NCBI GenBank assembly: GCA_963765575.1
Contig: CAVXWZ010000002.1
Coordinates: 128,001-192,000, forward strand
Direction: 5' to 3'
Origin: an uncultured cyanobacterium
Lineage (GTDB): Bacteria > Cyanobacteriota > Cyanobacteriia > PCC-6307 > Cyanobiaceae
DNA length: 64,000 bases
Positions 53,906 through 64,000 of this stretch are shown here, in pieces; positions within the stretch are counted from its first letter, which is position 1; each line of letters opens with the position of its first letter. Under the pieces are notes generated by a model. The model saw only the letters and a list, made by a program, of their open reading frames with translations, had not been told where the DNA came from and did not search any database. Position numbers and translations under genes: made by a program.

Positions 53906-55201
53906 TTGATCGAGCGCTACACCCTGCCCGAGATGGGCGATCTCTGGAGCGAGCAGGCCAAGTTCCAGAGCTGGCTGGATGTGGAGATCGCCGCCACTGA
54001 GGCCAACGCCGAACTGGGGCGGGTGCCCCCTGAAGCGGTTGCCACGATCAAGGCCAAAGCCGGCTTTTCGGTGCAGCGGATCCTCGAGATCGAGGCGGAG
54101 GTGCGCCATGACGTGATCGCCTTCCTCACCGATGTCAATGAGCACGTGGGCGATGCGGGCCGTTACATCCACGTGGGCATGACCAGCTCCGACGTGCTCG
54201 ACACCGGCCTGGCCCTGCAGTTGAAGGCCTCGGTGCAGCTCCTGCGCGCCGAACTCGACCAGTTGGCCGTGGCAATCCGCGAGCTGGCCCGCGCCCACAA
54301 GGGCACGGTGATGATCGGCCGCAGCCACGCCATCCATGGCGAGCCCATCACCTTCGGCTTCAAGCTGGCGGGCTGGCTGGCGGAGACGGAGCGCAACCGT
54401 GAGCGCCTGGAGCGCCTGGAGCGGGTGGTGAGTGTGGGCCAGATCAGTGGCGCCATGGGCACCTACGCCAACACCGATCCCAAGGTCGAGGAGCTCACCT
54501 GCGCCAGCCTGGGCCTGGTGCCCGACACCGCCAGCACCCAGGTGATCTCCCGGGATCGCCATGCCGAGTACGTGCAGACCCTGGCCCTGGTGGGTGCGGC
54601 CCTGGAGCGCTTCAGCACTGAGATCCGCAACCTGCAGCGCACCGACGTGCTGGAGGTGGAGGAGAACTTCGCCAAGGGGCAGAAAGGCAGCTCGGCCATG
54701 CCCCACAAGCGCAACCCGATCCGCAGCGAACGCATCAGCGGCCTGGCCAGGGTGCTGCGCAGCTACGTGGTGGCGGCGCTGGAAAACTGCGCCCTCTGGC
54801 ATGAACGCGACATCAGCCACAGCTCAGTGGAGCGGATGATGCTGCCCGACTGCTCAGCCACCCTGCACTTCATGCTGCGCGACATGACCGAGGTGGTGCG
54901 CGGGCTGGGGGTGTATCCCGACAACATGGCCCGCAACATGAATGTGTACGGCGGGGTGGTGTTCAGCCAGCGGGTGTTGCTGGCCCTGGTGGAGGCCGGC
55001 ATCAGCCGTGAACAGGCCTACCGGATCGTGCAGCGCAACGCCCACAGCGCCTGGAACACCCCCGGTGGCGACTTCCACGCCAACCTGATCGACGACCCTG
55101 AGGTGAGCAGCCAGCTCAGCGACGACCAACTGGAGGCGTGCTTCACCACCGACCTGCACCAGGCCAATCTGGGGGTGATCTGGGAGCGGCTGGGCATCTG
55201 A
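53906..55201 (+). CDS. purB: Adenylosuccinate lyase
   Basis: IERY, RHDV, TSSD, GSSAMPHKRNP. Confidence 0.97.
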   Translation: MIERYTLPEMGDLWSEQAKFQSWLDVEIAATEANAELGRVPPEAVATIKAKAGFSVQRILEIEAEVRHDVIAFLTDVNEHVGDAGRYIHVGMTSSDVLDTGLALQLKASVQLLRAELDQLAVAIRELARAHKGTVMIGRSHAIHGEPITFGFKLAGWLAETERNRERLERLERVVSVGQISGAMGTYANTDPKVEELTCASLGLVPDTASTQVISRDRHAEYVQTLALVGAALERFSTEIRNLQRTDVLEVEENFAKGQKGSSAMPHKRNPIRSERISGLARVLRSYVVAALENCALWHERDISHSSVERMMLPDCSATLHFMLRDMTEVVRGLGVYPDNMARNMNVYGGVVFSQRVLLALVEAGISREQAYRIVQRNAHSAWNTPGGDFHANLIDDPEVSSQLSDDQLEACFTTDLHQANLGVIWERLGI

Positions 55202-55237: not shown

Positions 55238-56581
55238 TTAATTGGTGAAGATGCGATAGATGGAGGCGGCGTTGAGCACCGGACCCAGGGGGGTCACGGC
55301 CTGCAACAGGAAGTCGTTGAAGCGGGTCCAGCCGTTGCGGGGCACCACCACCATGTCGCCGTTGTGCAGGGAGGGATTGGCCGGCGAATCCAGCGGTGCC
55401 GAGGGGTCAAAGATCACGCTGCGCACACTCACCTCACCGCTGGGTTCCACCCGGATCAGGCGGATCTCCTTGGTATTGGCCCGCAGCGGATCCACATCCC
55501 CAGCGGCGATCACAGCGGAGGCCAGCGGGCTGTTGGAGCGCACCTGGGTCAGGCCCGGCTGCACCACCTCACCCACCACCATGACGCCGATGGTGTCCGG
55601 GGCGAAGTTGGAGGCGGCCGTGCGGATCAGCACATCACTGGGCTGGGGTGTCTCTGCGCGGGCCACCCGAACCATGTCGCCGTCGTAGAGCAGGGGATTG
55701 ACGGTGCTGCGGTTGTTCATCAGCACCTCCAAGTAGTCGAAGCGGTACTCCACAGGCTGTCCACCGGGCACGGCGCTGGGGCGGCTGAGCACAACCTCGG
55801 AGAGGTCGGCGATCGCGGTGATGCCACCGGCCCGCTGCACCGCATCCACCAGGGTGGGCCAGCCGGCCGTGGCGATCGTGGTTTCCGAGGCGGCCGGCCC
55901 AGCCGCCGCCAGACGGGCCGCCTCCCCACCCTGGGTGAGCGTGTAGAAACCGGGCCGCTGCACCTCGCCCAGCAGGGTCACGCGCACCGGACGCGGTGCC
56001 AACAGATCGAGGTACACGAGCGGGTTGCGCAGGAAACGGTCGTAGCCCTCGGTGATGCGTTGACGCGCCTCGTCCATGGTCAGCCCCCAGACGGGCACGG
56101 CGCCCAGCCGGGGCAGGTTGACCGTGCCGTCGGCCAGCACCTCAACCACCGCCTCGTAGCCCTTCACCATGAACACGGACATGGTCAGTCGATCCCCCGG
56201 GCCGAGGCGATAGCGAAAGCCCCTGCTGCCGGGATCAATGCTGACCACGTTTGGCTGGCGCAGGGCCTGGGGCGCCGCTGGGGCGCTGCCCAGGGGAGAG
56301 CGCTTGCGGGTTTCTGCCCCCCTGGCGGCCGGCTGGGTGTCGGTGGCGGCAGGAATGGATTCGGCGGCGGCGGGAATCGGATCGCCGGGAGCCTGATCGG
56401 GGATCGGGAAGGCCTCGGGCTGGTTGGCGCCCTGGGCCAGGGTGCGGGGCGGCGCCCCCAGGGCCGTCACCAGCGCTCCGACGGGCAGCAGGCTCAGGGG
56501 GGTGAGCAGCAGGGCGGCGGCCCGGCGTCGCAGCCCGCGGCGGGCGGCTCGGTCTGCTGCGGTGAGGGGGGTAGAAGACAC
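55238..56581 (-). CDS. Polysaccharide export outer-membrane protein (Wza/KpsD-like, SLBB domains)
   Basis: YRLGPGD, DGTVNLPRLG, GEVQRPG, AGG, GDMVVVP; signal peptide. Confidence 0.88.
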   Translation of the reverse strand: MSSTPLTAADRAARRGLRRRAAALLLTPLSLLPVGALVTALGAPPRTLAQGANQPEAFPIPDQAPGDPIPAAAESIPAATDTQPAARGAETRKRSPLGSAPAAPQALRQPNVVSIDPGSRGFRYRLGPGDRLTMSVFMVKGYEAVVEVLADGTVNLPRLGAVPVWGLTMDEARQRITEGYDRFLRNPLVYLDLLAPRPVRVTLLGEVQRPGFYTLTQGGEAARLAAAGPAASETTIATAGWPTLVDAVQRAGGITAIADLSEVVLSRPSAVPGGQPVEYRFDYLEVLMNNRSTVNPLLYDGDMVRVARAETPQPSDVLIRTAASNFAPDTIGVMVVGEVVQPGLTQVRSNSPLASAVIAAGDVDPLRANTKEIRLIRVEPSGEVSVRSVIFDPSAPLDSPANPSLHNGDMVVVPRNGWTRFNDFLLQAVTPLGPVLNAASIYRIFTN

Positions 56582-56675
56582 GGACCTGGGGGCAGAGGGA
56601 ACCGGTAGCCGGCCAGGGTGACGCTGGGGAGCACCGGGACAGGCGGGCTAATCTTCACGCACCCCCAACCCAATC

Positions 56676-57644
56676 GTGAAGACGACCGACGGAAATCCGC
56701 TGAATCTCTCCGCCGCGATCGCTCTTCCCCAGGATCGGGTCCAAGCGGATCTGGCTCCCTTCCTGCTGCTGTCCTCCCAGGGCCTGGATCTCTACCTGCT
56801 GCCCGGCGAGCGCTTTGGTCCCTACGCCGAACCGGTGGGGGAGCTGCGCGAACTCACCTACCGACAGCAGCTCTCGGGCTCCGGCAAGAGCCGGGATCTG
56901 GACAGCCGCGATCCCCATTACGACCACTTCCTGCTGGTGGAGAGCAACAGTGGCGAATTGGCGGGATCGGCACGCCTGCAGTTCGTCCCCGCTCGCGCGA
57001 GCGGCGACCAATCCGCAGCGGGGTTGCCGCCCTTGCCGGGTGGGGCGCAGTCCTACCTGGAACATGTGTATCCGGGCATCAAGGCCCATCTGGCCAGCCA
57101 GGGCAACCACCTGGAGATCGGCCGTGTGGCCCTGGCGCCACGGTTTCAGCGTCAGCCCCACACCCTGATGCTGCTGTTTCGCGGCGGTCTTCAGGTGGCC
57201 GTGGGAGCCGGTTACAGCTCCATCCATGGTCTGGTCTCCTACAACCACTTCGCCTACGACGAAACGGTGAACCGGGAGTTTCTCAGCACCCTGCTGCGTC
57301 CCCCCTTCCTCGATCCCTCCAGCCCCCATCCACAGCCGCGCCATCCGGTGGCAGGTCTCGCCCCCGCGCCCAGCCCCGCTGCCGTGGCCAGCATCCAGGA
57401 ACTGGAACTGCACATCCGCCACGACCTGGACCCATCCTTCCGTCTGCCCGTGCTGCTGCGCCAGTACTTCAACCTGATGGAGGCCAGCGTGCGCAACCTC
57501 TCTCTGGCCCGGGACTTCAACCAGATCACCGAGATCCTGATGGCCGCCGATCTGCGGCGGATCCCGACCCGCCGGCTGGAACACTTCATCGACGTCGACC
57601 ATCGGCCGATCTACCGGAGTTTCAGCTGGTACCGGGGAGGATGA
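56676..57644 (+). CDS. GNAT-fold N-acyltransferase of OlsB / OlsF C-terminal type
   Basis: GELRELTYR..GSGKSRDLDSRDPHYDHFLL, LEIGRV...RFQ, LPVLLRQY, DF..I..L..ADL. Confidence 0.75.
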   Translation: MKTTDGNPLNLSAAIALPQDRVQADLAPFLLLSSQGLDLYLLPGERFGPYAEPVGELRELTYRQQLSGSGKSRDLDSRDPHYDHFLLVESNSGELAGSARLQFVPARASGDQSAAGLPPLPGGAQSYLEHVYPGIKAHLASQGNHLEIGRVALAPRFQRQPHTLMLLFRGGLQVAVGAGYSSIHGLVSYNHFAYDETVNREFLSTLLRPPFLDPSSPHPQPRHPVAGLAPAPSPAAVASIQELELHIRHDLDPSFRLPVLLRQYFNLMEASVRNLSLARDFNQITEILMAADLRRIPTRRLEHFIDVDHRPIYRSFSWYRGG

Positions 57645-57701
57645 GGCCGTGCCATTGAACTGGTACGTTGCCATCCGATCAAGGCGTGGCCGAGGGACTT
57701 G

Positions 57702-58052
57702 ATGCACGCAGGCCCCGACAACGACAGCAGCGGAGCCGCGTCCCCCATTCCTGGCGCCAATCGCCAACCGAGGGCCCACGACACCGCCACTCCCGGCCGG
57801 CAGAGCCTGCAGGAGCGGCTGATCGAGATTCTGCAGCGCATCTCAGGGGCTGATCCGGAGCAGATCACCCCTGATGCCCGGCTGATCGAAGACATCGGCA
57901 TCGACTCCCTGGGCTTCTACGAAATCCTGATCGAGGCGGACGAGTGCCTGGGCATCAAGATCCGGGAAGAGGATCTGCTCGGCTTCCGCACCGTGGGGGA
58001 TGTGCAGCGGCACCTGGAGTCCCTGGAGCGGGACCATGGCCCGAACAACTGA
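57702..58052 (+). CDS. Acyl carrier protein
   Basis: ITPDARLIEDIGIDSL phosphopantetheine motif; LGIKI; TVGDV. Confidence 0.88.
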   Translation: MHAGPDNDSSGAASPIPGANRQPRAHDTATPGRQSLQERLIEILQRISGADPEQITPDARLIEDIGIDSLGFYEILIEADECLGIKIREEDLLGFRTVGDVQRHLESLERDHGPNN

Positions 58053-59292
58053 GCGCATCGCGGTCACCGGCTGGGGGGCCATCACCCCGCTGGCCGCCGA
58101 TGCCGACGCCACCTGGGCGGCCATGGTCGCGGGCCACTCCGGCATTACGGCCCTAGACCAGGCCTGGGCCAGCGACCTGCCCGCCCGCATCGGCGGCTGC
58201 GTTGCCGAGGACATCGCCAGCGAGCTCGAACCGCTCCAGCGCCGCCGCCTGGATCGCTGCTCCCAGCTCGGCCTGCTGGCCGCGCGCCAGGCCTGGGCCC
58301 AGGCCCGACCGCAGCTGGCGGGGATCGATGCGGCCCGGGTGGCGGTGGTGATCGGCACGGGCATCGGCGGGCTGGCGACCCTGGAGCGGCAGCACCGCAA
58401 TCTGCTGGAGGCCGGCCCGAGCCGGGTCAATCCGCTCACCGTGCCGATGCTGATTCCCAATGCCGCAGCCGGCCAGATCGCCATTGACCTGGGCTTGCAT
58501 GGCGGCGCCCACACGCCGGTGTCGGCCTGCGCCTCCGGAGCGGAAGCGCTGCTGCTGGCCCAACTGCTGCTCAACGACGACCGCGCCGACGTGGTCATCG
58601 CCGGCGGCAGTGAGGCGCCCGTGAACCGGCTGGGCCTGGTGGGCTTTGCGGCCATGCGTGCCCTCTCCTGCCGCAATGGGGCCCCGGATCAGGCCTCCCG
58701 CCCCTACGGCCGCGACCGGGACGGCTTCGTGCTCTCGGAGGGGGCGGGGGCGCTGGTGTTGCAGCGGCAGAGCGACCTTGCCCCCGGCGCTCCCCAACCC
58801 CTGGGCTGGCTGCTCGCCTGCGGCAGCAGCAGCGACGGCCACCACATCGTGGCGCCGGAGCCGCAGGGGCTGCGGGCCAGCGCCGCCATGGCCGACGCCC
58901 TCAGACGGGCCGACATCGGCGTTGACGCCCTGAGCTTCGTGCAGGCCCATGCCACCGGCACGCCGCTGGGCGATCTGGCGGAGGCCCGGGCGCTGGCCCG
59001 AACCCTGGGTGCCCGCGTCGAGGACCTGCCGGTGACGGCCCCGAAGGGCCAGCTGGGCCACCTGCTCGGAGCCGCCGGAGCCGTGGAGACGATCCTGGTG
59101 CTGCAGGCCCTGCGCCAGGGCCTTGTGCCCCGCAGTGTCAACGCCGACCCCCTCGACCCGGCGATCGCGCTGGCGGTGGTACAGGACGGTCCACTCCGGC
59201 TGCCGGGCGGTGCCGACGGCGGCGAGCGCTACGCCCTCAAGAACGCCTTCGGTTTCGGCGGCCACAACATCAGCCTGGTGCTGGCGGCCTGA
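58036..59292 (+). CDS. Beta-ketoacyl-ACP synthase (FabF-like)
   Basis: VTGWGAITP, catalytic Cys in SACASG, HATGT, KGQLGH, NAFGFGGHN. Confidence 0.92.
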   Translation: MARTTERIAVTGWGAITPLAADADATWAAMVAGHSGITALDQAWASDLPARIGGCVAEDIASELEPLQRRRLDRCSQLGLLAARQAWAQARPQLAGIDAARVAVVIGTGIGGLATLERQHRNLLEAGPSRVNPLTVPMLIPNAAAGQIAIDLGLHGGAHTPVSACASGAEALLLAQLLLNDDRADVVIAGGSEAPVNRLGLVGFAAMRALSCRNGAPDQASRPYGRDRDGFVLSEGAGALVLQRQSDLAPGAPQPLGWLLACGSSSDGHHIVAPEPQGLRASAAMADALRRADIGVDALSFVQAHATGTPLGDLAEARALARTLGARVEDLPVTAPKGQLGHLLGAAGAVETILVLQALRQGLVPRSVNADPLDPAIALAVVQDGPLRLPGGADGGERYALKNAFGFGGHNISLVLAA

Positions 59293-61312
59293 GGGCGGGG
59301 CCGGCGTAGTGGGCCTGAACGGCCTGCACGAAGGCGCGGCGGTCGCCCGGCTGCTCCTGGATCTGCAGCTCCCGGGCGCGGCCCCGGCGGCAGTGGATCG
59401 TGGCCAGGGGGGCCGTGAGCCGGGAGAGCAGCAACCGCAGCGGCCGATAGAGGTCGCTGGCCGAAGTGGAAAGCCCGTAGTAGCTGAAGGTCCAGGGCAC
59501 GATCAGGGCTCCATGCTTGCGGGCCAGGATCAGGGCGCTGGCGGAAACCCGCTCGCTGATCGGCGTCACCAGGGAGCCATTGGGGGCCAGCATCACCTGG
59601 CCACGCTGGGCCAGCGTGCGCGACGCCCCGTACACGGCCGAGGTGCGCGAGCGGCCATCGCGATGGTCCATCAGGCCATGGCCGGCATTCGCCGCCGAGG
59701 CCGCGAACCAGGGCATGATCCGGCTCAGGTGCAGGCTGGCGGTGGTGATGCTGGGGAGCCGCAGCACCCCCTGAACCACCAGCACATCGGCGGGGTGCTC
59801 GTGGTTCCAGATGTGCACCAGGGGAAGGCCCTCGGGCTCGCTGGGATGGCTGTCATCCACCACCACGCTGATGCCCAGGGCCCGCAGTCCCACCAGGGCC
59901 GTGGCGACGAGCAAGCGGGCGGCCAGCCGGCGGCAGCCCAGAGCCAGCGCCAGCAGTTGCAGCCCGTAGACCAGGAAATAGGAGACCCCCCAGAAGGATC
60001 GGGCCAGCACCCGCAGCGGCAGCAGCAGGCGGTTGTCCCGGGCCGCTTGGCCGGGGGCGGGAAGCTGCGGGCGCGGTGACAGCCGGCGGGCCTCCGGTCC
60101 AATGGGGAAGGTGGTGCGGAAGGGGAAGTCGCCGTCGAAATTGCCGTTCACCTGCGTGGTGGTCACCAGGTGGTCGTAGAAGCGGTAAAAGAGCGGCCGG
60201 TCGCTGGTATGGGGTTCGCGCCAGAACTGATCCAGGGGCTGCTGATCGGTGAGACCGGGGAGGTTGTAGAAGGTCTGGCCCATCACCTTGGTGGGTACCG
60301 CGTGATAAAGGGCCTGCAGTCCCACGGAGCTGTTGACGGTCACCACGCCGCGACAGGTGCGCAGGAAGCGGCTGAGGGCACCGTCATGGAAGTAGTGCAC
60401 CCGGCCCGCCAGCCCATGGCGATGGGCCAACAACTGGATCAGCCGTCCGTAGTGGTTGTAGCCCCGGTCGCGGGGGTGGTGCTTGAAGGCGAGGTGGTCG
60501 GAGGCATGGGCATGGCGGGCAAAGGAGGTGATCACGTCTTCGATGAAGTCGTGCATTCCCCGGTAGGGCGAACCCAGCTGCACCTGGGAATCACTCGACA
60601 CCTGCAACACCACCAGAAAGAACGAGAGGTGCTCCAGCAGGCGCTGTTTCAGGGTGCGCTGCTGCCAGCGATAGAGCCAGTAGCGCCAGTTGCCGCGCAG
60701 CTGGCACCAGAGAAAACGCGGCGAGGGCTGCAGCTTGTGCTCACCCTCGATGATCGGGTACCGGGTGAAGGCGTGCTGGATGAAGGTGGGGGCCTTCCAG
60801 AGCTTGCGCCAGCGCCAGCCGGGATCCAGCTGGCCCTGGGGGAGCGCATCCACCGGCGGCAACTGGTGGTAGAAGTCGGCGGGCTGGTTGAGATTGGAGC
60901 GGGCATTGACCCGCTCGCGCTCAAGGGTCACGTAGTTGGGCCGGATGTAGCCGAGCTCGAACACCCAGGCCTCGATGCCGGCGCTGCGCGCCTCTTCGAT
61001 GGCCATGCGGTGGGGAATGATGAAGTCGCCATACATGAAGATGTGGCGAATTCCGCGCTCGACGATCAGCTGGCGCAGAAACGGCCGCCACTCCTCCATC
61101 GAGCCACTGAAGGGCACCCGCACCTCCCGGGGGAAGCCGAACTCATGCAGCGGGAAGCTCACCTTGGTGACGGGAATGCCGCAGCCGCGCAGGTAGCGGC
61201 AGAAGCGGGCGAAGAACAGTCCGATCGGCCCCATCAGCAGCAACACCGGCCCGTCGATCTGCACCTGAACCAACTGCACCGGAGCCGGAGCGGGGGCCCG
61301 TTCTGTGGTCAA
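59270..61312 (-). CDS. kpsS: KpsS-like capsule glycolipid Kdo-transferase fused to a C-terminal PlsC-like acyltransferase domain
   Basis: LLLMGPIG, VFELGYIRPNYVTLE, QVSSDSQ, KHHPRDRG, VNSSVG; then a TM-like segment, NHEHPAD (NHx4D) and LAPNGS. Confidence 0.82.
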   Translation of the reverse strand: MTTERAPAPAPVQLVQVQIDGPVLLLMGPIGLFFARFCRYLRGCGIPVTKVSFPLHEFGFPREVRVPFSGSMEEWRPFLRQLIVERGIRHIFMYGDFIIPHRMAIEEARSAGIEAWVFELGYIRPNYVTLERERVNARSNLNQPADFYHQLPPVDALPQGQLDPGWRWRKLWKAPTFIQHAFTRYPIIEGEHKLQPSPRFLWCQLRGNWRYWLYRWQQRTLKQRLLEHLSFFLVVLQVSSDSQVQLGSPYRGMHDFIEDVITSFARHAHASDHLAFKHHPRDRGYNHYGRLIQLLAHRHGLAGRVHYFHDGALSRFLRTCRGVVTVNSSVGLQALYHAVPTKVMGQTFYNLPGLTDQQPLDQFWREPHTSDRPLFYRFYDHLVTTTQVNGNFDGDFPFRTTFPIGPEARRLSPRPQLPAPGQAARDNRLLLPLRVLARSFWGVSYFLVYGLQLLALALGCRRLAARLLVATALVGLRALGISVVVDDSHPSEPEGLPLVHIWNHEHPADVLVVQGVLRLPSITTASLHLSRIMPWFAASAANAGHGLMDHRDGRSRTSAVYGASRTLAQRGQVMLAPNGSLVTPISERVSASALILARKHGALIVPWTFSYYGLSTSASDLYRPLRLLLSRLTAPLATIHCRRGRARELQIQEQPGDRRAFVQAVQAHYAGPALRPPAPG

Positions 61313-61367
61313 CGCGGTGTCCTGCAGGGCAATGCCTGGCTCAACTCTGCCACCCCAGGCAAGGCGC

Positions 61368-63377
61368 TCAGCGCTGCCGCAGCCGCCCCCAGTGCCGGAA
61401 GATCCGCTGCCGCAGGCTCAGGGGACGGGGCGGTGCCGAGCGCCAGGCCAGCAACTCCTCGATCGCCTGCTCCGGCTCGATGAACAGGCCGCTATGGCGG
61501 CTCACGTACAGCGGATAGTCGATCAGGGCGGCATGGACCAGGGCATCCAGGGGCAGGGGCCGCCCCCGGCGCTCGCAGCTCAGGCGGTCGTGGCTGAGGC
61601 CCCAGCCGGCGTAGAAGGGCAAGCCCCAGGTGTGCACCTCCAGCTCCCGCAGCAGGGCCTCGAAACCGGCGATCGAGGTGAGCACGTGCAGGGCATCGAC
61701 CTGGGTGAACAATTGCTGGATCGAGGCGTCCACCAGCAGCTCGTCACACCAGTCCAGTGCCGCGTGTTCCCCCGAACCCGGCCGGCACAGCCCCGCCACC
61801 ACGTCGGGGTGGGGCTTGTAGACGAGATGGGCCGAGGGCTCGGCGGCCCGCACCGCCTGCAGCAGAGCCAGATTGGTGCGCAGCCCGGGGGCCCCCAGCC
61901 GGATTGAGGCATCGGCTTCCACCTGTCCCACCACCAGCACCACCCGGCGGGCAGCGTCCGGACGGCGCCAGGCCGGGGCCAGGAGGTTGTACTTCGTGAT
62001 CGCCTGCTCCACCAGCCGGCTGCGCAGACCCCGGGCCCGCAGCAGTTGCCTGTCGTCCCATGACCCGGTGGCCAGCAGCTGTTCGAGCTCACTGGGGGCG
62101 CTGGCGTCGTAATAGATGCCGCGCCGGTCGATCACCCAGGACATCGGATCGATCAGGTCGGCCCCAAGCCCCACCGAGCGCAGGAAGCCGTCCTCGGCGT
62201 GCAGCAGCGGCAGATCGCGGCGGCGGGCCGCCTGCAGCAGGGCGGGCTTGGCGCGCCGGCCCCACACCGCCAGCGCCTCGGCGCGGCGGCCCGGCCGCTG
62301 CCAGGGAAACCGGAACCGCAACCGGCTGCCGGCCAGGAAGCGGCGCAGCACCCGCTGTTTCCAGGGGGTGAAGCCGAAGGCCTCGATGCGCTCGGGATTG
62401 CGGCAACGGTGCCGGCGCTGCAGGCCGATCGCCGTGATCAGGTCCTCCACCGCGCAGGGCCGCTGCCGGTGGGGATCGATGTACACGGCGTAATCGACCA
62501 GGGCCGCATGGATCAGATCACCGAGCTGCCGCGGCCCCCGCCGCGCGGGCGCGGGGGCGTGGTCCCGGGTGAGTCCCCAGCCGCCATAGAAGGGCATGCC
62601 GAAGCAGTGCACCGGCCGGCCCCAGAGCAGGGCCTCAAAGCCCAGCTGGGAGGTGACCACATACACCGCCTCAGCCCGCTCGAGCAGGGCCGCGGGGTGG
62701 CCGCCGCTGGCCTCGAGCTTGATGCGCGGATGCCGCAACTGGCGGGCCTGGAAATGGCCGCGCTTGCGGCCGCGGACCACATCCGGATGGGTCTTGACGA
62801 CCACCGTGCGCTGCGGATGGTCGGCCAGGGCGGCGGCGAGCATGGCGGCGAAGCTGCCGCGATCGGCCCCACCCAGGCCGATCGAGAGGTCACCGGCCGT
62901 CTGATCGACCACCAGCACGAAGGGCTCGGCCGGCGCCGCCGCCTCGCGGCTGCCGTTGTACTTGCTCACCCGCTGCTGGCACCACAGGCGGCGGATGGCG
63001 GCGGCCCGCAGCAACTGGGCCGGGCTGTGGGCGGCAGCGATCAGGCGCTCCAGGCGGGAGGGGGCGGCGGCGGCGTAATAGATGCCGGCGTCATCGATCA
63101 CCAGGCCCAGGGGCACGCTGTCGGGCCCCAGGCCCAGGGAACGCAGAAAGGCGTCTTCACAGCGCCAGAGCGGCAGCTTGCGCCGCCGTGCCAGCCGCTC
63201 GGCCCGGCGGGCGCTGGGCTTGTGGCCCCAGGCCAGCAGGGCATCGAGCTCGGCGCCGGCGCAGCGGGCCGCCCCGCTCACCAGGTGGTGGTCGGCCAGC
63301 AGCGCCGCCAGGGTGCTGTGGCGCAGCATGCCGGCGGCCGGCAGCCCCAGACGGGCCGCGGGGAGAGGAGAGGCCAA
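61368..63377 (-). CDS. kpsC: KpsC-like two-domain capsule Kdo-transferase
   Basis: Tandem domains each with ED.FLRS, QTAGD/QVEAD, K.HPD, TS..GFEALL and G.PFY.GWGL. Confidence 0.9.
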
Positions 63378-63441
63378 GGGCGTGGAGGCGCCTGCAGGCG
63401 GGGCGCCTGGCTGGAGCGGGGCTCAGGTTACCGACCGCGCC

Positions 63442-63744
63442 ATGGCTGCTACGTTCAGCCCCACCGCTGCCGGGGACACGGCCAAGGTGCTGATCGACAG
63501 CTTCATGGACTCCTCCATCGACCGGCTCTGCGCGGCGGTCGCTGAAGAGGTGGGCATGCCCGTGGGGCGGGTCCGCCGGGTGGTGCTGGCCCTCCAGCGC
63601 CAGCGGCAGCGCTCCATGGCCGGCATCGCGGCGGCGAGCGCCGCGGCTCCCGGTCTGGAGGCCGCTGCGCCCGATGATCCCCTGCGCTGGTATCCGCTCG
63701 GGGCCAATGGCCGGCTGCGTCCCCCCGGGCCGGATCAGCCATGA
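63442..63744 (+). CDS. Small hypothetical protein with a possible helix-turn-helix
   Basis: ATG 63442; VAEEVGMPVGRVRRVV; stop overlaps the next ATG. Confidence 0.55.
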   Translation: MAATFSPTAAGDTAKVLIDSFMDSSIDRLCAAVAEEVGMPVGRVRRVVLALQRQRQRSMAGIAAASAAAPGLEAAAPDDPLRWYPLGANGRLRPPGPDQP

Positions 63745-64000
63745 GCAGCCCCGGCGCCGCGGCCGCCATCGATTCCGACCTGCCGGCCCTGGCCCTGATC
63801 CCGGCACGGGGCGGCTCCAAGGGCGTGCCGGGCAAGAACCTCCGCAGCGTGGGGGATGTCGCTCTGCTCGCCCGTACGGTGCGTGCCAGCAGAGCGGCCC
63901 ACAGCATCGGTCCCGTGTGGGTGAGCAGCGACGACACGGCCATCGGCGCCCTCGCCGAGCGTGAAGGGGCCGGCTGGTTGCGGCGACCAGCCGACCTGGC
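63741..64000 (+). CDS. Acylneuraminate cytidylyltransferase family protein (NeuA-like), truncated by the window end
   Basis: Manual translation ALIPARGGSKGVPGKNLRSVG...VWVSSDD...RRPADL; not in the ORF track because no stop lies in the window. Confidence 0.88.
   Translation, partial: MSSPGAAAAIDSDLPALALIPARGGSKGVPGKNLRSVGDVALLARTVRASRAAHSIGPVWVSSDDTAIGALAEREGAGWLRRPADL

Follow-up and report, generated by a model that had tools for sequence, protein, structure and literature searches.

Gene content of the locus

We analyzed a capsule locus in a 64,000-nucleotide stretch of DNA from an uncultured cyanobacterium of the family Cyanobiaceae (assembly GCA_963765575.1, contig CAVXWZ010000002.1, positions 128,001–192,000 of the forward strand). 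We will refer to this whole stretch as the window, and to the genome that it comes from as the source genome (G000). The locus lies at window positions 55238–64000, directly after purB (53906–55201, + strand), where a preliminary description had listed seven genes. All seven are present and intact, as judged by matches to domain and family profiles, and the last one runs past the end of the window (Table 1). They encode an outer-membrane polysaccharide export (OPX) protein, a GNAT N-acyltransferase (hereafter, the GNAT), an acyl carrier protein (ACP2), a ketosynthase (KS), KpsS fused to an O-acyltransferase (AT) domain, KpsC, and a cytidylyltransferase. Among named homologs, those of Cyanobium and Synechococcus are the nearest. 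We read the locus as the front end, conserved across relatives, of a group 2/3-like capsule system that depends on an ABC transporter. Our leading explanation, which we consider an even call, is that this system makes an amide-linked lipid of its own as the acceptor.

Table 1. Genes and domains of the locus, with positions in the window.
Feature	Positions	Strand	Matches and remarks
kpsD/wza-type OPX protein, 447 aa	55238–56581	−	PF02563 (E = 5e-17), PF10531, PF22461 (SLBB)
OlsF/GlsB-like GNAT N-acyltransferase, 322 aa	56676–57644	+	PF13444 (E = 1.9e-11)
Second acyl carrier protein (ACP2)	57699–58052	+	PF00550 (E = 3e-12); start uncertain
FabF-type ketosynthase (fabF2), 418 aa	58036–59292	+	PF00109/PF02801; NF005589 (404 bits, cut-off 387)
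KpsS-acyltransferase fusion, one 680-aa frame	59270–61312	−	PF05159 + PF01553
HX4D AT domain, C-terminal, about residues 430–675 of the fusion	59288–60025	−	PF01553 (E = 5e-5)
KpsS beta-Kdo transferase domain, N-terminal in the fusion	60098–61312	−	PF05159 (E = 1e-57); NF050054 (275.6 bits, cut-off 600)
KpsC, two beta-Kdo transferase modules, 669 aa	61368–63377	−	PF05159
NeuA/PseF-like cytidylyltransferase, 250 aa	63741–64000 (gene end at 64493, counting on from the window)	+	Truncated at the edge of the window

The genes do not form a single operon; they run in opposed units: kpsD is transcribed leftward, GNAT-ACP-KS rightward, and kpsC-kpsS leftward. We did not find a sigma-70-like promoter in the locus, and the one terminator-like site is within chance expectation. 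Nor does its composition support an island. The GC content of the locus (0.68–0.74) is like that of the window (0.63–0.74), and the GNAT is present in 26 of 29 genomes from the same genus, so we rejected a recent arrival in this genus.

Sugar genes and kpsM/T/E-like genes, for which the preliminary description proposed to inspect the flanks, lie beyond the window. The NeuA/PseF-like gene heads a sugar block that goes on with three glycosyltransferases (DUF6716) and NeuB, and a sulfotransferase and more sugar genes are also found there. About 35 kb further along the contig, our own gene calls include kpsE-, kpsM-, and kpsT-like open reading frames (ORFs). The KpsM-like ORF matches PF01061 with 25.9 bits, slightly under the cut-off of 26.9. 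The KpsE- and KpsT-like ORFs had no match when scanned against Pfam, and their names rest on sequence and position. One more ORF (63442–63744; 100 aa), with a weak coding signal, lies between kpsC and the gene for the cytidylyltransferase; of 20 related loci, 1 has a homolog of it.

The GNAT is found with KpsS and KpsC

Among 150 genomes of the family, KpsS was matched in 21 and the GNAT in 21, and 20 genomes contained both. The exceptions were G136, a draft of 88% completeness in which KpsS is matched in part and the GNAT is not matched, and G060, which has one weak GNAT match (72 residues, E = 4e-4) and no KpsS match. No strong match to the GNAT was found in any KpsS-less genome of the 150. 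We fetched 20 of the 21 KpsS loci and read their neighborhoods. The GNAT adjoined KpsS in all 20, ACP and KS were present in 17, and the AT was intact in 16; purB was within the stretch in 10 of these loci.

A scan of species genomes by alignment to the GNAT confirmed 95 places, of which we retained the best 80. KpsS with a fused AT was present in all 74 of these that were long enough to judge (the other 6 stop at a contig edge), and kpsD was present in 75 of the 80. In a larger sample, the GNAT was found in 68 of 400 genomes of the family. Among 300 genomes sampled from across the phylum, 11 had PF05159 and 6 others had weak GNAT matches (E = 4e-8 to 5e-6), with no overlap, and we did not find the GNAT-KpsS module outside of the family in the genomes that we searched. 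In four loci (L058, L090, L112, and L125), the cluster is picocyanobacterial and the title of the record is not; these are probably mislabelled assemblies.

The invariant core of the locus is GNAT, KpsS, and KpsC. The proposed tie of the GNAT and KpsS-AT to kpsS/kpsC held up across other genomes, and residues of the catalytic type are conserved, as described below for the window plus 100 loci (including 5 duplicates; near-complete matches only). All parts of the locus are under purifying selection (dN/dS = 0.04–0.27, from three sets of five closely related loci). Distances in the GNAT and KpsS trees are also correlated (r = 0.94, 83 loci), which is explained by shared ancestry.

The neighborhoods also bear on whether the acyltransferases might acylate the capsule's sugars, for instance by placing an N-acyl group on a nonulosonic acid, and be unrelated to the anchor. 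GNAT folds are versatile, and the source genome and its closer relatives have adjacent NeuA- and NeuB-like genes. However, the NeuA-like gene is present in just 10 of the 20 fetched loci, and where it is lacking, the GNAT stays with kpsS/kpsC. Thus, the GNAT tracks the anchor genes, not the sugar block. Since its closest relatives are lipid synthases (see below) and HX4D enzymes work on lyso-lipids, we consider acylation of sugars to be very improbable.

The KpsS-acyltransferase fusion

Both modules of KpsC contain the QxxxD and HP motifs that are described for KpsC (PMC10148158), and solved KpsC chains match both halves of the protein (E = 4e-67 and 1.5e-64). The KpsS domain of the fusion has these motifs at residues 237–241 and 279–280, and each is conserved in 88 of 89 proteins. 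In the AT domain, which is preceded by amphipathic/hydrophobic helices, the HX4D motif is NHEHPAD (residues 503–509); the histidine is conserved in 91/91 and the aspartate in 90/91. In the structural model of the fusion (pLDDT = 78.9, pTM = 0.55), the N-terminal half resembles beta-Kdo transferases and aligns to KpsC (6MGB; Z = 12.5, rmsd 4.2) and WbbB (5FA0; Z = 12.2, rmsd 4.0). The C-terminal half is PlsC-like and aligns to PlsC (5KYM; Z = 14.3, rmsd 4.4, 221 residues). Foldseek with the whole fusion gave mostly GT-B folds, so the structural match to PlsC came from a wide structural aligner alone. Among solved structures, the AT profile's sole sequence match was also to PlsC (5KYM, E = 4e-4); the AT domain scores 17.4 bits against TIGR00530, as compared to a cut-off of 102.95. 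Predictions of a complex of the GNAT with KpsS-AT scored 0.00 in both runs, a "no answer" verdict that weighs neither way.

The AT domain is degenerate in four of the fetched loci (4/20), from genus g8. It has lost both the histidine and the aspartate, along with a deletion of ~50 residues, and we found no intact substitute in these four draft genomes. What remains of the domain still evolves under purifying selection (dN/dS = 0.22), and the GNAT, ACP, and KS are kept (0.13–0.26). This implies that the second acylation is dispensable in this genus and that KpsS/KpsC have their constant partner in the GNAT. Some marine loci carry the AT twice: an additional copy, which stands alone, lies between the fusion and fabF2 (L081:12460–13182, L085:12414–13133, and L025).

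The similarity to PlsC suggests another explanation: the anchor could still be based on phosphatidylglycerol (PG), with the fused domain re-acylating or remodeling PG or lyso-PG, and with the GNAT and ACP2/FabF2 acylating some other conserved portion of the linker region. Characterized KpsS acts on PG, and PG or lyso-PG termini are the norm (PMC10148158). Besides PlsC being the AT's only sequence match of solved structure, the AT has two invariant arginines that could bind an anionic head group, and the AT can be lost, as in genus g8. Yet a PG-based anchor would leave the most constant partner, the OlsF-type N-acyltransferase, without a clear job. Also, PlsC's DR and PEGT motifs appear in the AT as DH/NH and PNGS/PSGS, which hints at another acceptor but is no proof, and none of 102 plasmid records that match KpsS covers 80% of the fusion. 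On balance, we view a PG-based anchor as unlikely.

The N-acyltransferase resembles a domain of OlsF

The GNAT matches PF13444 with 45 bits (cut-off 22.4) and aligns to positions 278–569 of the 570-position OlsF model (NF052615), which is the C-terminal half only. All 18 family members that we compared match NF052615, below its cut-off; GlsB matched 9 of the 18 and OlsB matched 3, weakly. An hhalign comparison of the GNAT to the C-terminal half of an OlsF-like fusion gave a probability of 99.3 (E = 1e-20, 262 aligned columns), and the homology extends along the whole GNAT domain. Among representatives at 50% identity, the GNAT's next relatives are the C-terminal halves of proteins of 550–640 aa. 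We scanned eight such proteins and all were OlsF-like, below the cut-off. In OlsF, it is the C-terminal domain that N-acylates (PMC12971839). Because the nearest outside relatives of the GNAT correspond to this domain, an amide-linked lipid is favored. The GNAT thus resembles the N-acyltransferase domain of OlsF, and its amine substrate is predicted only as a class.

Glu147 of the GNAT is conserved in 100/100 sequences. Its structural model is confident (pLDDT = 92.9), and the best structural matches are to TofI, LasI, RpaI, and FeeM (Z = 13.2–13.6, rmsd 3.1–3.8, 170–186 residues), which we take to form amides from acyl-ACP or acyl-CoA. Generic GNATs follow less than one Z unit behind (Z = 12.8 and below), a margin that is too small to decide the function. 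The GNAT profile had no match among the sequences of solved structures. We looked for the genomic context of the distant stand-alone relatives P0159 and P0153 in two metagenome scans, which found nothing.

We considered whether the GNAT and the AT are a split OlsF and rejected this. OlsF's O-acyltransferase domain has an HX5D motif (bioRxiv 2022.08.18.504050), in contrast to the HX4D motif of the AT, and the AT did not match the OlsF-like N-terminal domain (probability 1.9). Nor is the GNAT a bifunctional OlsF, as it matches the C-terminal half only.

The GNAT and the AT might also make a free aminolipid that aids the capsule's export or retention and is not the covalent acceptor for Kdo. The products of OlsB/OlsA, OlsF, and GlsB/GlsA are free membrane lipids, and standard acyloxyacyl aminolipids would have no free hydroxyl for Kdo. 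But in 74/74 loci the O-acyltransferase is fused to the transferase that initiates the capsule, which is a better fit to the hand-over of a substrate, and the GNAT has no strong match in the sampled genomes without KpsS. We think that a free aminolipid is quite unlikely.

The ACP and the ketosynthase are accessory

The carrier serine of ACP2 is conserved in 64/64 sequences, and the Cys/His/His of FabF2 in 60/60. ACP2 is 24% identical to the housekeeping AcpP, and FabF2 is 37% identical to the housekeeping FabF. The source genome has a separate housekeeping acpP-fabF pair as well as a plsC-like gene, which is a stronger match to PF01553 and lies inside a plsX-fabH-fabD block, so ACP2, FabF2, and the fused AT are extra copies. 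There are also two isolated ACP-like genes in the source genome (C11:10251–10508 and C11:81436–81678).

ACP and KS are present in 41 of the 74 GNAT loci. In the other 33, the GNAT directly adjoins the fusion. All five of the genomes without ACP/KS that we tested hold just one ketosynthase (one of these is a single contig, and two have no completeness figure). In a tree of GNAT and KpsS from 24 loci, the main group without ACP/KS is nested among loci that have them (support of 99 and 95), and another such locus, L041, is separate from this group. This placement, with a midpoint root only, favors the loss of ACP/KS at least twice. ACP and FabF2 are accessory and dispensable. Of the five-enzyme route to a lipid that was originally proposed, the linkage of the GNAT and KpsS-AT to the capsule genes stands; since many loci lack ACP/KS and the AT is degenerate in genus g8, the full pathway is not obligatory.

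A GT-B glycosyltransferase (L036:6990–7982) adjoins the GNAT in 36 of 36 loci that lack KS and in 5 of 61 that have it; we did not find it in the source genome. It may be a transition transferase or part of the route to the anchor.

Kdo supply

kdsA is present in all 21 genomes with KpsS, as compared to 65 of the 150 genomes overall. WaaA was found in one of five complete KpsS genomes that we tested and was absent from the other four. Also, the lipopolysaccharide (LPS) of strain WH8102 is reported to lack Kdo (PMC4515613). Together, these observations imply that Kdo is available for a use outside of LPS, and in strains without WaaA, it plausibly serves the capsule linker.

In the source genome, a kdsB-like gene adjoins kdsA, 350 kb from the locus, and is a stronger match to PF02348 than the cytidylyltransferase gene of the locus. 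The cytidylyltransferase of the locus is present as described, but it is not this kdsA-linked gene; instead, it is NeuA/PseF-like and paired with NeuB. kdsA itself is split over two frames in the source genome (C2:543610–544399), due to a frameshift or an assembly error. Its second part runs in frame into an ORF that is presumably kdsC-like. Elsewhere in the source genome, after psbEFLJ, there is a block of five genes (C11:127249–133270): an acyltransferase, waaA (PF04413), and lpxK-, lpxB-, and msbA-like ORFs, the last three labelled by eye from sequence.

Comparison to known systems

The gene set was put forward as undescribed, but it has been published. Doré et al. 2023 (PMC10119275) report a kps cluster, Syn-eCAG_008/009, in marine Synechococcus and liken it to an E. 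coli group 2/3 capsule. By annotation, the cluster comprises kpsD, N-acyltransferase CK_00002156, ACP CK_00002157, fabF2, kpsS, and kpsC, which are listed as Syn-eCAG_008, followed by neuA, glycosyltransferases, and neuB. This is the same gene set and order as in our locus, with kpsM/E/T close by, as matched by names and order and not by sequence. In the available text, the acyl genes are given no role, and the AT fusion, a role in the anchor, and the variants without ACP/KS or with a dead AT are not mentioned. A 12-gene kps cluster that is common to clades III and WPC1 was described earlier (Doré et al. 2020, PMC7522525), and KpsS/KpsC were found to be restricted to a few cyanobacteria (PMC4594306, which we take to be Pereira et al. 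2015). A search of mostly open-access literature found no paper on a KpsS-AT fusion or on this anchor. So it appears that the locus is already published and that the anchor hypothesis is not.

The system shares KpsS, a two-module KpsC with QxxxD and HP motifs, an OPX exporter, and Kdo synthesis genes with E. coli group 2 capsules, along with a candidate ABC permease (the KpsM-like ORF). Unlike in E. coli, KpsS scores below the NCBIfam cut-off, bears a C-terminal acyltransferase, and has an N-acyltransferase as a partner. The lipid synthases OlsB+OlsA, GlsB+GlsA, and OlsF likewise combine an N-acyltransferase, of the type in OlsF's C-terminal domain, with an O-acyltransferase for lyso-lipids, and in its modeled PlsC fold and HX4D dyad, the AT resembles PlsC/OlsA (PF01553). 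However, our proteins score far under the cut-offs for those synthases, are linked to a capsule initiator, and may have their own ACP/KS. In Sinorhizobium rkp and Burkholderia wcb loci, lipid-synthesis genes are also found beside kpsS/kpsC homologs, but those encode large proteins like type I polyketide synthases, unlike the GNAT, the free ACP/KS, and the KpsS-AT fusion. The Vi antigen's ABC-dependent locus has a dedicated acyltransferase (VexE) and yields a non-PG anchor, a diacyl-HexNAc, which is termed the sole known variation on the capsule anchor prototype (PMC8760489). Vi loci lack kpsS/kpsC, while our locus has both.

A proposed route to the capsule anchor

In our leading explanation, for which we see about even odds, the beta-Kdo linker is built on an amide-linked lipid that is made for the purpose. 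This is favored because an N-acyltransferase together with an HX4D O-acyltransferase follows the logic of OlsB/OlsA. A more specific version, in which the anchor is a phosphorus-free aminolipid that is made by the OlsF-type N-acyltransferase and the KpsS-fused O-acyltransferase and primes a KpsS/KpsC capsule, is possible but rather doubtful.

In this route, acyl-ACP would donate an acyl group, probably a 3-hydroxyacyl, which the GNAT would attach to a small amine to give a lyso-aminolipid. Where present, ACP2/FabF2 would provide a tailored chain, with the help of housekeeping reductases; lineages without them would use AcpP. The HX4D domain would then attach a second acyl group at the membrane, and the fusion would pass the lipid to KpsS. 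In genus g8, this step would be skipped and a mono-acyl anchor retained. By homology, KpsS would put the first beta-Kdo on a free hydroxyl. As the 3-hydroxyl is esterified in acyloxyacyl lipids, Kdo would need another hydroxyl, a constraint that was absent from the preliminary description. Ornithine or glycine lipids would not offer one, so the head group would have to differ: a hydroxy-amino acid, an amino alcohol, or an amino sugar would be required. Finally, and also by homology, KpsC would lengthen the linker, glycosyltransferases would polymerize the capsule, and KpsMTED would export it.

Several observations weigh against this route. The GNAT scores just 44.8 bits against the OlsF model (cut-off 620), so its substrate cannot be assigned from that model; generic GNATs are nearly as similar in structure; and no gene in the locus indicates which amine would be used. 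No ornithine lipids have been identified in cyanobacteria (PMC12971839), and KpsS as characterized acts on PG (PMC10148158). PlsC, which 28 of 33 AT family members match, is a phospholipid enzyme, while OlsA matched just 3 of the 33 (E = 6e-4 at best). ACP and FabF2 are dispensable, the AT motif is lost in the four loci of genus g8 with no substitute found in those draft genomes, and the source genome's kdsA is split. Also, the genomes that we compared are relatives, so the co-occurrence counts are not independent trials.

Implications

Our analysis suggests that picocyanobacteria of lakes and seas may build a capsule anchor of their own in place of the usual phospholipid. KpsS/KpsC capsules are considered to be defined by an anchor of PG-linked beta-Kdo, and a KpsS that acts on an amide lipid would, if true, break this rule. 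It would mean that KpsS has an acceptor other than PG and that cyanobacteria have an aminolipid. In phosphorus-poor water, capsule initiation would be independent of the PG pool. Such a KpsS would also explain in chemical terms why the cluster is reported to be enriched in waters that are depleted in N and P. With one lipid per polymer, the saving of phosphorus itself is probably small, and the likelier benefit is that capsule initiation would not depend on a PG pool that shrinks. The natural variants, without ACP/KS or with a dead AT, are ready-made controls, and if the proposal is correct, the locus would be a concrete target for the discovery of aminolipids in cyanobacteria, among very abundant phototrophs.

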